Source: an uncultured Clostridium sp. (lineage in GTDB: Bacteria; Bacillota; Clostridia; TANB77; CAG-508). Taken from it: a DNA stretch of 64,000 nt. The first letter of the stretch is position 1. The number at the start of each line of letters is the position of its first letter. The stretch is from contig CASVZF010000002.1 in the NCBI GenBank assembly GCA_949467015.1, positions 2,856 to 66,855 on the forward strand, in the 5' to 3' direction. A model generated the notes under the pieces. It worked only from the letters and a program-made list of their open reading frames with translations. It was not told the origin of the DNA and did no database searches. A program made the position numbers and the translations under genes. Of the stretch, positions 63,038 through 63,128 are shown piece by piece.

Positions 63038-63128
63038 ATGGCTAACTGGTGGCTAAATAGGGACGGGTACATAGTGACCAAAATTTGGTCACTATGTACC
63101 CGTCCCTATTTAGCCACCAGTTAGCCAT
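63038..63128 (-). repeat. 91-bp perfect palindrome (42-nt arms, 7-nt centre), GC-rich
   Basis: ATGGCTAACTGGTGGCTAAATAGGGACGGGTACATAGTGACC aaaattt GGTCACTATGTACCCGTCCCTATTTAGCCACCAGTTAGCCAT; the two arms are exact reverse complements. Confidence 0.75.

Follow-up and report, generated by a model that had tools for sequence, protein, structure and literature searches.

A long intergenic palindrome beside a T7SS-like gene cluster as a probable member of a foldback repeat family in human-gut Clostridia

Genes and palindrome at the locus

The palindrome described here lies close to one end of the window (the whole 64,000-nt stretch of DNA that was analysed, from an uncultured Clostridium sp.), and all genes that flank it are on the minus strand (Table 1). 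It directly follows a compact T7SS-like cluster with the Pfam families FtsK_SpoIIIE, FHA, DUF4176, ADP-ribosyl exotoxin, ADP-ribosylglycohydrolase and WXG100, whose last gene encodes an 83-aa protein with no Pfam match. On its other side, 63 nt separate it from the start codon of a gene for an ABC substrate-binding protein (hereafter the binding protein), downstream of which come genes for an XRE-type regulator and then smc. The distances to the stop codon and to the ATG agree with the original prediction, which had placed the palindrome between two minus-strand genes, 5' of the binding-protein gene and 3' of the upstream operon. The -35 box of the predicted binding-protein promoter begins 11 nt past the end of the palindrome, and the element-free relative L049 has the same predicted promoter directly after the stop codon of a permease gene.

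A repeat search returned a perfect core of 45 + 1 + 45 nt with its central A at 63083, which extends to 55 + 1 + 55 nt at 96% complementarity when 2 mismatches are allowed, both of them within the outer 10 nt of the arms and forming G.U pairs in the sense RNA. The 91-bp palindrome that had been predicted is thus exact in its coordinates and its perfection, but the 42-nt arms assigned to it around a 7-nt centre are too short: the AAAATTT centre is self-complementary about the middle A, so the arms are really 45 nt around 1 nt. The prediction had also called it locally GC-rich, and it has 43% G+C in a window of 27% G+C. A 40-mer arm match was found in none of 100 dinucleotide shuffles, and by our own estimate (about 0.30 per position to the power 45) the chance of 45-nt arms is roughly 1e-23; a chance origin of the palindrome is excluded. 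Folded as RNA, the element forms an unbroken 55-bp stem (-103.5 kcal/mol, z -18), and folded as DNA it reaches -60 kcal/mol (z -18). An arm on its own does not fold stably: z lies between +0.6 and +0.9, and the minimum free energy never falls below -1.8 kcal/mol. In Rfam the locus matched nothing but generic models of microRNA-precursor hairpins, whose scores of 40-52 bits fall short of the thresholds of 70-94.

Table 1. Features of the locus and copies of the palindrome family. Positions are those of the window unless another locus is named.
Feature	Position	Strand	Basis or remark
Site f, 97-nt palindromic insertion in smc 5' leader	61174-61270	none	perfect 23-nt arms, 28 nt at 93%
Binding-protein gene (NMT1/NitT-TauT-type ABC substrate-binding protein, 337 aa)	61951-62964	-	true ATG at 62964
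Candidate promoter of binding-protein gene, TTCACA-18-TAAAAT	62987-63016	-	top-scoring site of the region
Full palindromic element, 55-nt arms	63028-63138	none	repeat search, RNA fold; identical in L004
Perfect core (interval of the original prediction)	63038-63128	none	arm 45, loop 1 also in L001/L004
Three GCTAA(A/C)T units at left-arm base, 11-13 nt spacing	63028-63058	+	GCTAA at 63028, 63041, 63052
Family core motif GGGACGGGTAC, left arm	63060-63070	+	invariant or co-varying columns of alignment A3
Mirror copy of core motif GGGACGGGTAC, right arm	63096-63106	-	
Mirrored units, right arm	63108-63138		TTAGC at 63110, 63121, 63134
83-aa gene, last of T7SS-like cluster	63140-63391	-	stop codon 1 nt from palindrome
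EssC-type FtsK/SpoIIIE ATPase gene, upstream of 83-aa gene	63384-64000+		neighbour Pfam families
Site a, ABC permease gene to left end of T7SS island	L003 7-87		35-nt perfect arms, 11-nt loop
Site a, other copies	L062 991-1057; L059		diverged in L062, decayed in L059
Site b, 83-aa gene to binding-protein gene	window copy; L015		
Site c, binding-protein gene to XRE regulator gene	L010 5027-5121		47-nt perfect arms, apex as in window copy
Site c, other copies	L014, L016, L017, L022-L024; L028		diverged 35-nt-arm version in L028
Site c, foldback of about 270 nt	L062 4134-4399		termini GGGGACGG...CCGTCCC, extra internal sequence
Site d, past canonical terminator of rpmB-like gene	L020		contig end cuts copy
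Site e, last codons of mfd	L022 5340-5400		solo-arm remnant

A family of related palindromes

The original prediction was to be given up if the palindrome proved unique in its genome and absent from relatives. Neither is the case: in neighbouring and related DNA that was fetched, further copies were found both in the window's own genome and in relatives, and related palindromes occupy at least six intergenic sites across the window genome and its close relatives (sites a to f, Table 1). The site a copy in L003 belongs to the window's own genome and lies about 10 kb from the window copy, beyond the end of the window. Within the window there is no second close copy, the remaining 63 kb being free of other members except for the diverged relative in the smc leader, and about 150 kb around rpsR in ten strains held no family members. 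The smc-leader element, for which four related genomes have clean empty sites, scores 41.8 bits to the family model with the shared letters UAA.U.GGGA.G.GU. At site d the preceding gene appears to be rpmB, to judge from a C-terminus that reads as ribosomal protein L28.

The distribution of the family is narrow. In strains whose binding protein is 93-94% identical (L014-L017, L022-L027) the binding-protein gene has copies on both sides; in the species with 82% identity (L009/L010) the same core and apex lie on the downstream side of that gene and not on its upstream side. L062, L028 and L059 hold diverged members, and slightly more distant relatives (L039-L058, L067-L072) have no member at sites a to c, with ordinary terminators or tight junctions there instead. 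An exact 20-mer core was present in 1 of 185,579 species-representative genomes (L009), a pattern that misses variant cores such as those of the ACAGA type, and a degenerate arm pattern run against metagenomes returned 4 loci only. Two of these four, L018 and L019, were set aside as one-arm chance matches inside coding or odd-composition DNA. There was no match in viral contigs (two patterns), PLSDB plasmids or INPHARED phages; Rfam gave only sub-threshold microRNA-hairpin models for the 270-nt relative; a protein search with the two ORFs that run through the element returned nothing; and a full-text literature search for the core motif returned only unrelated primer matches. The best explanation for the palindrome is that it is one copy of a lineage-restricted, low-copy, non-coding foldback repeat family in a clade of low-GC human-gut Clostridia, and the family itself is one not described before.

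The members have a common plan. From its base, each arm runs through one, two or three (T)GGCTAAAT(GGG) units and then GGGGACGG(G/A)TACA, beyond which a variable stretch ending in (G/T)T(G/A)ACC leads into an A/T-rich centre; in the window copy the units read GCTAAAT, GGCTAAC and GGCTAAAT, 11-13 nt apart. The arm base is conserved in sequence, and the apex varies among copies while its two sides stay complementary. A likeness to Bacillus subtilis Ter sites (CTATGTAC) was discarded, the octamer not being conserved across the family.

Co-variation was counted on alignment A3, which holds 9 distinct copies over a 31-pair helix. Across these copies 97.5% of the positions are paired and 17 pairs are invariant; changes on both sides were seen in 8 of the 31 pairs (20 cells), and G.U in 2 cells only. 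When the partner was slid by 1-3 columns as a control, pairing was 31-43%. Perfect arms range from 23 to 47 nt across the family, and the L028 copy is diverged in sequence yet perfectly matched over 35 positions. The co-variation shows that the two arms evolve in concert. From these few events we infer that symmetry held at the DNA level, or by copying from arm to arm, would fit better than slow two-step RNA compensation alone, because wobble intermediates are nearly absent. Symmetry may be restored by intrastrand templating, in which one arm is copied from the other, or by hairpin-dependent propagation, and either process would explain double changes with almost no G.U intermediates. Perfectly matched arms that persist despite drift offer a natural system for the study of palindrome tolerance and symmetrisation in a bacterial chromosome.

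Rearrangement of the T7SS island

Many relatives (L014, L022-L028, L039-L058) have the gene order ATPase-permease-binding protein, which on comparison looks ancestral. In the window genome and others a T7SS island of about 10 kb lies between the permease and binding-protein genes, and in the window genome it is in its forward state. Four contigs with an identical binding protein and 99.9-100% identity over the next 3.9 kb differ upstream. L014 reads permease-palindrome-binding protein, with the island absent; L015 (ERZ28618518 scaffold_3) reads EssC-83 aa-palindrome-binding protein, with the island forward; and L016 and L017 (ERZ28600031; JGI 3300055615), together with two similar places, have the other end of the island (WXG100 on the opposite strand, then HTH_26) next to the same palindrome, with the island inverted.

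The palindromes of these alleles differ in their outer arms, of which there are two types that differ by a 5-nt indel between units. The forward allele (L015) is symmetric, with GTGGCTAAT-GGCTAAATGGGG on both sides, and the inverted and island-less alleles (L016, L014, L022) are hybrid, one side carrying GGCTAAATGGGT-GGCTAAATGGGG and the opposite side the shorter type. Such hybrids are the product expected from a crossover in the shared core of the two palindromes that flank the island. Any two palindromic copies are repeats of each other in the direct as well as the inverted sense, and a single pair can therefore lead to a deletion or to an inversion. The island-absent and island-inverted alleles of these sister strains probably arose by recombination between copies; an exchange of this kind, probably aided by hairpin breakage, would delete or invert the intervening DNA. 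The alleles without the island differ from the others by apex changes of their own (8 nt deleted from the apex in L022-L027, three substitutions in L014) and so are not assembler chimeras. The inverted allele has its core as in L015 and is supported by four contigs that come from different pipelines. Its reciprocal junction, with the order permease-palindrome-83-aa gene (reversed), did not turn up, and an assembler may yet have created the inverted arrangement by a false join within the core that the alleles share. If the inversion is real, the forward strain is predicted to have a symmetric left palindrome whose two arms both carry GGCTAAATGGGTGGCTAAATGGGG. In the window genome the two island-flanking copies have only short identical stretches in common, and the left end of the island has a deletion of about 740 bp at a TTCTAA microhomology.

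Long palindromes are known targets of SbcCD. In E. coli, palindromes are substrates for hairpin nucleases and recombination, and apex deletions with nearby exchange are products of hairpin breakage at long palindromes (PMC3315005). The fragile palindromes of the SbcCD/Mre11 type (Darmon et al. 2010, PMC3315005) resemble those described here in being perfect or near-perfect with tiny centres, and the 8-nt apex deletions of L022-L027 with the rearrangements nearby are the products expected of them. Those palindromes are engineered or sporadic, however, whereas these form a conserved family across species, and persistence across species with matched arms indicates maintenance and not mere tolerance.

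The original prediction had listed a recombination or homing site among its candidates. This holds as a consequence, in the form of rearranged island alleles with hybrid palindromes, but nothing in the fetched loci points to a dedicated recombinase or homing enzyme. The idea can be put more strictly, as a dedicated structure-specific site of the att or attC kind at which a putative recombinase would see the folded or cruciform palindrome and excise, insert or flip cassettes, and in this form it is unlikely. It would account for copies that bracket the T7SS island and the binding-protein gene, for island-present, -absent and -inverted alleles in near-identical strains, and for hybrid palindromes, which a crossover within the site predicts; moreover, one palindrome of L015/L016 has arms of different apex type (an A.C mismatch), as if recombined centrally. 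Integron attC sites, too, are palindromes (57-141 bp, at cassette 3' ends) with a conserved base and a variable, pairing middle that are recognised as structure, and the copies here likewise bracket units that differ among strains. Yet the family consensus is GGCTAAAT ... ATTTAGCC and not the attC cores RYYYAAC ... GTTRRRY, a pattern that the middle unit of the window copy (GGCTAAC/GTTAGCC) also fails; the arms are perfect, with no extrahelical bases; and the bracketed units have their own promoters and include a 10-kb operon. No integrase Pfam family occurs among the neighbouring genes, and no integrase or recombinase gene in any fetched locus. A perfect palindrome carries no information on strand or direction, the copies after rpmB and mfd have no evident cassette, and homologous recombination over the shared core of 60-70 bp gives the same products. 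The island also occupies the same locus in palindrome-free species: it is there in L067 without palindromes, and in L010 without one on the binding-protein side. For the same reason the palindromes were rejected as integration sites of the island.

We consider it quite improbable that the palindromes are purpose-built, structure-recognised recombination sites of a system undescribed in Firmicutes. Its enzyme would act on the extruded hairpin or cruciform, excise and invert the cassette, and keep the arms matched by hairpin-templated chemistry; one pair of sites could serve for both excision and inversion because each site is its own reverse complement. Copy pairs bracket an island of T7SS antibacterial toxins that is present, absent or flipped in near-identical gut strains, and the repeats may thereby shape interbacterial competition at the level of strains.

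Gene ends and a proposed role in RNA

Six of the seven full copies start 0-5 nt past the stop codon of a gene transcribed towards the element, and where a genome has no element, an ordinary hairpin terminator stands in the corresponding place (upstream in L010, downstream in the window and in L049). The 3' tail of the window copy, UAUUUGUCUUGUU, has 5 U in its first 8 nt, and several copies (among them those of L003 and L010) end in GGUGG...CCACC followed by UUUU(U). Transcription from the T7SS operon would then yield a 55-bp RNA hairpin with a U-rich tail. This hairpin would terminate or protect the upstream transcript, or be cut out of it, and would keep read-through away from the binding-protein promoter. 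Correia/NEMIS elements of Neisseria, ERIC/IRU elements of enterobacteria and the RUP elements of pneumococcus are co-transcribed with genes and can be terminators, RNase targets or mRNA stabilisers. Correia and ERIC elements thus offer an analogy, on which the palindrome could plausibly serve as a 3' hairpin (as a terminator, a block to exonucleases or a substrate of RNase III) and would insulate the promoter downstream.

These observations also invite a simpler account, in which an unusually long intrinsic terminator evolved in place, has no mobility and only ends the T7SS operon transcript. Rho-independent terminators, too, are stem-loops right after a stop codon with a U-rich tail, and the element stands where relatives have ordinary terminators. 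Even so, this account is improbable. The stem of 45-55 bp compares with 5-15 bp in Rho-independent terminators, and at 55 bp it far exceeds the needs of termination; the terminator scan of the region, which counts at most 20 stem pairs, called none. The same 20-60 nt of sequence recur at five or more unrelated sites, and one apex variant is found at different sites in different species. The L020 copy comes after a complete canonical terminator, and the smc relative is in a 5' leader and not at a 3' end; because of these two sites (d and f) a terminator role is not the whole story.

Gain and loss of copies

The apex ACATAGTGACCAAATTTTGGTCACTATGT is common to the window copy at site b and to the copy that L010 has at site c, the site b copy of L015 has an apex unlike that of the window copy, and ordinary terminators are found in L010 at site b and in the window at site c. 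The apex variants therefore do not track the sites, which argues that copies have moved or been converted from one site to another and have not simply descended vertically in place. Comparison of the locus with related strains, which had been proposed at the outset, shows that close relatives have gained, lost and replaced copies, with no target-site duplications. The proposed check for such duplications covered 11 copies and found none with flanking direct repeats, and the filled and empty smc-leader sites have none either. Only for that diverged relative can filled and empty sites be compared cleanly; at sites b and c the element takes the place of about 100 nt including the terminator, with no clean insertion. 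Spread or upkeep may proceed through a single-stranded hairpin form, as it does in REPINs.

No transposase, recombinase or integrase was tied to any copy in the fetched loci. One candidate source of the mobilising enzyme was a conserved Transposase_31 (Rpn-type) gene that lies two genes upstream of the permease; this gene was rejected, since it is equally present in the palindrome-free relatives L028, L039, L049 and L067. We note that this comparison groups L028 with the palindrome-free relatives; elsewhere L028 has the diverged copy with 35-nt arms at site c.

A MITE or foldback element, another candidate of the original prediction, is apt in the broad sense that there are further copies which come and go among close relatives, but the target-site duplication is absent. 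The suggestion of back-to-back terminal inverted repeats left by an excised IS fares worse: no IS with such ends was found, and host genes abut the element directly. In its fuller form this suggestion makes the palindrome the remnant of two transposon ends that came to abut through excision or an internal deletion, with the GGCTAAAT units as former transposase-binding sites. Elements of the IS21, Tn7 and Mu types have ends with multiple binding sites, which the several direct repeats per arm recall, and the 270-nt version in L062 has the same termini with extra internal sequence. Against this, viral, plasmid and phage collections and the fetched loci hold no longer element with these ends and a transposase, target-site duplications are lacking, and it is host stop codons and promoters that abut the element. 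Moreover, with the repeated units outermost, the transposon termini would have to lie at the centre and the body would have been replaced by host genes. We therefore regard a transposon relic as very doubtful and keep to a foldback repeat family whose copies come and go.

Relation to known repeat families

REPINs are REP doublets that form hairpins and are mobilised by RAYT transposases. By kind, the element is filed as a bacterial intergenic palindromic repeat that works most like a REPIN. Like a REPIN, it is a non-coding, intergenic, symmetric hairpin unit of about 100 nt that varies between close relatives and has no target-site duplications. REPINs also have conserved ends and a pairing spacer with common compensatory changes, and no duplications (Bertels and Rainey 2011, PMC3116915); the pairing middle with compensatory changes has its counterpart here in the double changes counted above. 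The differences are in the details of the unit and in its numbers. The halves of a REPIN are short REP palindromes of 20-40 nt, imperfect, whereas single arms here do not fold; the GTAG/CGTC end tag, which forms part of the definition of REP sequences (PMC3733652), is absent, the ends being GGCTAAAT units and CGTC occurring only internally as CCGTCCC. REPINs are present in tens to hundreds per genome near a RAYT gene, whereas there are a handful of clustered copies here, and no RAYT gene (IS200/IS605-like Y1 transposase) is listed in the fetched loci. The same survey reported no REP families from Firmicutes (PMC3733652).

The MITEs of the Correia/NEMIS, ERIC/IRU and RUP type are likewise short, non-autonomous, palindromic intergenic repeats, and to their terminal inverted repeats corresponds an element that here is an inverted repeat as a whole. 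Correia, ERIC and RUP elements, however, have target-site duplications, imperfect arms and high abundance, where this family has no duplications, perfect arms of 23-47 nt and, in the DNA covered, a low copy number, with at least six sites across relatives clustered around one locus. The viral, phage and plasmid collections and the fetched loci yielded no parent IS that combines the same ends with a transposase; the genome collection was scanned with one exact 20-mer only.

On balance we think it probable, if some way from certain, that this is a new REPIN/MITE-like foldback repeat that would act as a 3' hairpin in RNA and as a recombination substrate in DNA. The low, clustered copy number speaks against this reading, being unlike that of typical REPIN or MITE families. 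Since the family fails the defining tests of REP/REPIN, Correia and ERIC elements, their mobilising enzymes cannot be assumed for it. It adds a Firmicute example to the bacterial hairpin repeats, which so far are mostly the proteobacterial REP/REPIN, Correia and ERIC. A protelomerase or hairpin-telomere site was also considered and rejected, the flanks being chromosomal housekeeping and T7SS genes that are syntenic in many relatives, with no viral, phage or plasmid match.

The palindrome in independent assemblies

That the palindrome is a foldback or chimeric join made by an assembler, and not real sequence, is scarcely credible, because its two flanks are unlike each other and syntenic with relatives, the same element comes from independent samples and pipelines, and many family members are complete in other assemblies. 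The identical palindrome is contiguous in the independent ENA contig L004, the left arm is present in sample SRR33388183 (L008) and the right arm in ERZ24911261 (L002). Assemblers do err here, and it is from their errors that an artefact would draw its support: the NCBI MAG GCA_948636005.1 (L003) has both arms with an N-gap between them, L007 is a 2,044-nt foldback contig centred on the palindrome, Logan contigs end within the arms (L005, L006 and L008, and L011-L013 at a sister copy), and L021 and L027 have adapter sequence at contig ends. In practical terms, short-read metagenome contigs break or fold back at these elements, and the gaps that result in MAGs fall precisely on loci that vary between strains.

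Foldback elements around smc and the binding-protein gene

The leader of smc carries a palindromic insertion of its own, which lacks a target-site duplication and is missing in 4 related genomes. Scored against the model built from aligned copies of the foldback-repeat family, this insertion reached 41.8 bits, and it appears to be related to, but diverged from, the main palindrome. In other species, the interval from the binding-protein gene to the XRE gene holds a foldback of ~270 nt in L062 (4134-4399), which has the family termini (GGGGACGG...CCGTCCC) and additional inverted repeats inside, and a diverged family version in L028 (11022-11138) whose perfect arms of 35 nt enclose a ~50-nt loop; the size of family members is thus highly variable. 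At the ends of 2 further contigs (L021 and L027), the palindrome arm is followed directly by Nextera adapter sequence (CTGTCTCTTATACACATCT...), which points to untrimmed reads, and to fragments ending at the palindrome, in these public assemblies.

Comparison of window positions 59000-62964 with L014, a sister strain without the T7SS island, revealed mosaic identity, with 92.6% in the binding-protein gene, 97.3% in smc, and ~670 nt between the two genes that could not be aligned. This pattern suggests recombinational replacement around palindrome sites.

Features of the window
Feature	Position	Strand	Details
Palindromic insertion	61174-61270		97 nt; perfect 23-nt arms; between smc promoter and ribosome-binding site
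smc	57600-61146	-	two ORFs
smc ORF, 71 aa	60931-61146	-	
smc ORF, 1129 aa	57600-60989	-	
Conjugative-element region	1-~35000		MobA/VirD2 relaxase; VirD4-type coupling protein fragment; TraC/VirB4-like ATPase; DnaG-type primase; NlpC/P60 hydrolase; SpaA-repeat surface protein; C5 DNA methylase
Pilin-like/LRR_5 genes	49272-50381, 54282-57006		pilin-like N-termini; BspA-type LRR_5 repeats

Split reading frames and apparent decay of the T7SS island

The two smc ORFs lie in different frames and share 59 nt. All close strains, from independent assemblies, have smc divided in this way (L003, L014-L017, L022-L024, L049, and L056), and smc is a single ORF of 1175-1181 aa in L028 and L039-L042; the split may represent a frameshift that is conserved, whether programmed or tolerated. 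The ABC permease is encoded by two adjacent or overlapping ORFs of ~164 aa and 99-126 aa (L022 9044-9851, with equivalents in L028, L039, L049, and L067), an arrangement present in every clade genome examined, including those free of the palindrome.

At the left end of the T7SS island in the window's own genome (L003 88-170, ~10 kb past the window end), ~740 bp have been deleted at TTCTAA microhomology. The deletion joins the final ~55 nt of the HTH_26 regulator gene to the WXG100 gene (204 aa) at approximately codon 140. Because the WXG100 gene is reduced to a 64-aa remnant, this genome's T7SS island seems to be undergoing decay.

Several genes of the conjugative-element region also look broken into adjacent ORFs (for example, 15103-15990 and 15923-17449). 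The genes combining pilin-like N-termini (KGITLIALV...LILAGVTIATL) with BspA-type LRR_5 repeats, found in the window, L023, and L030-L035, differ in number and length from strain to strain.
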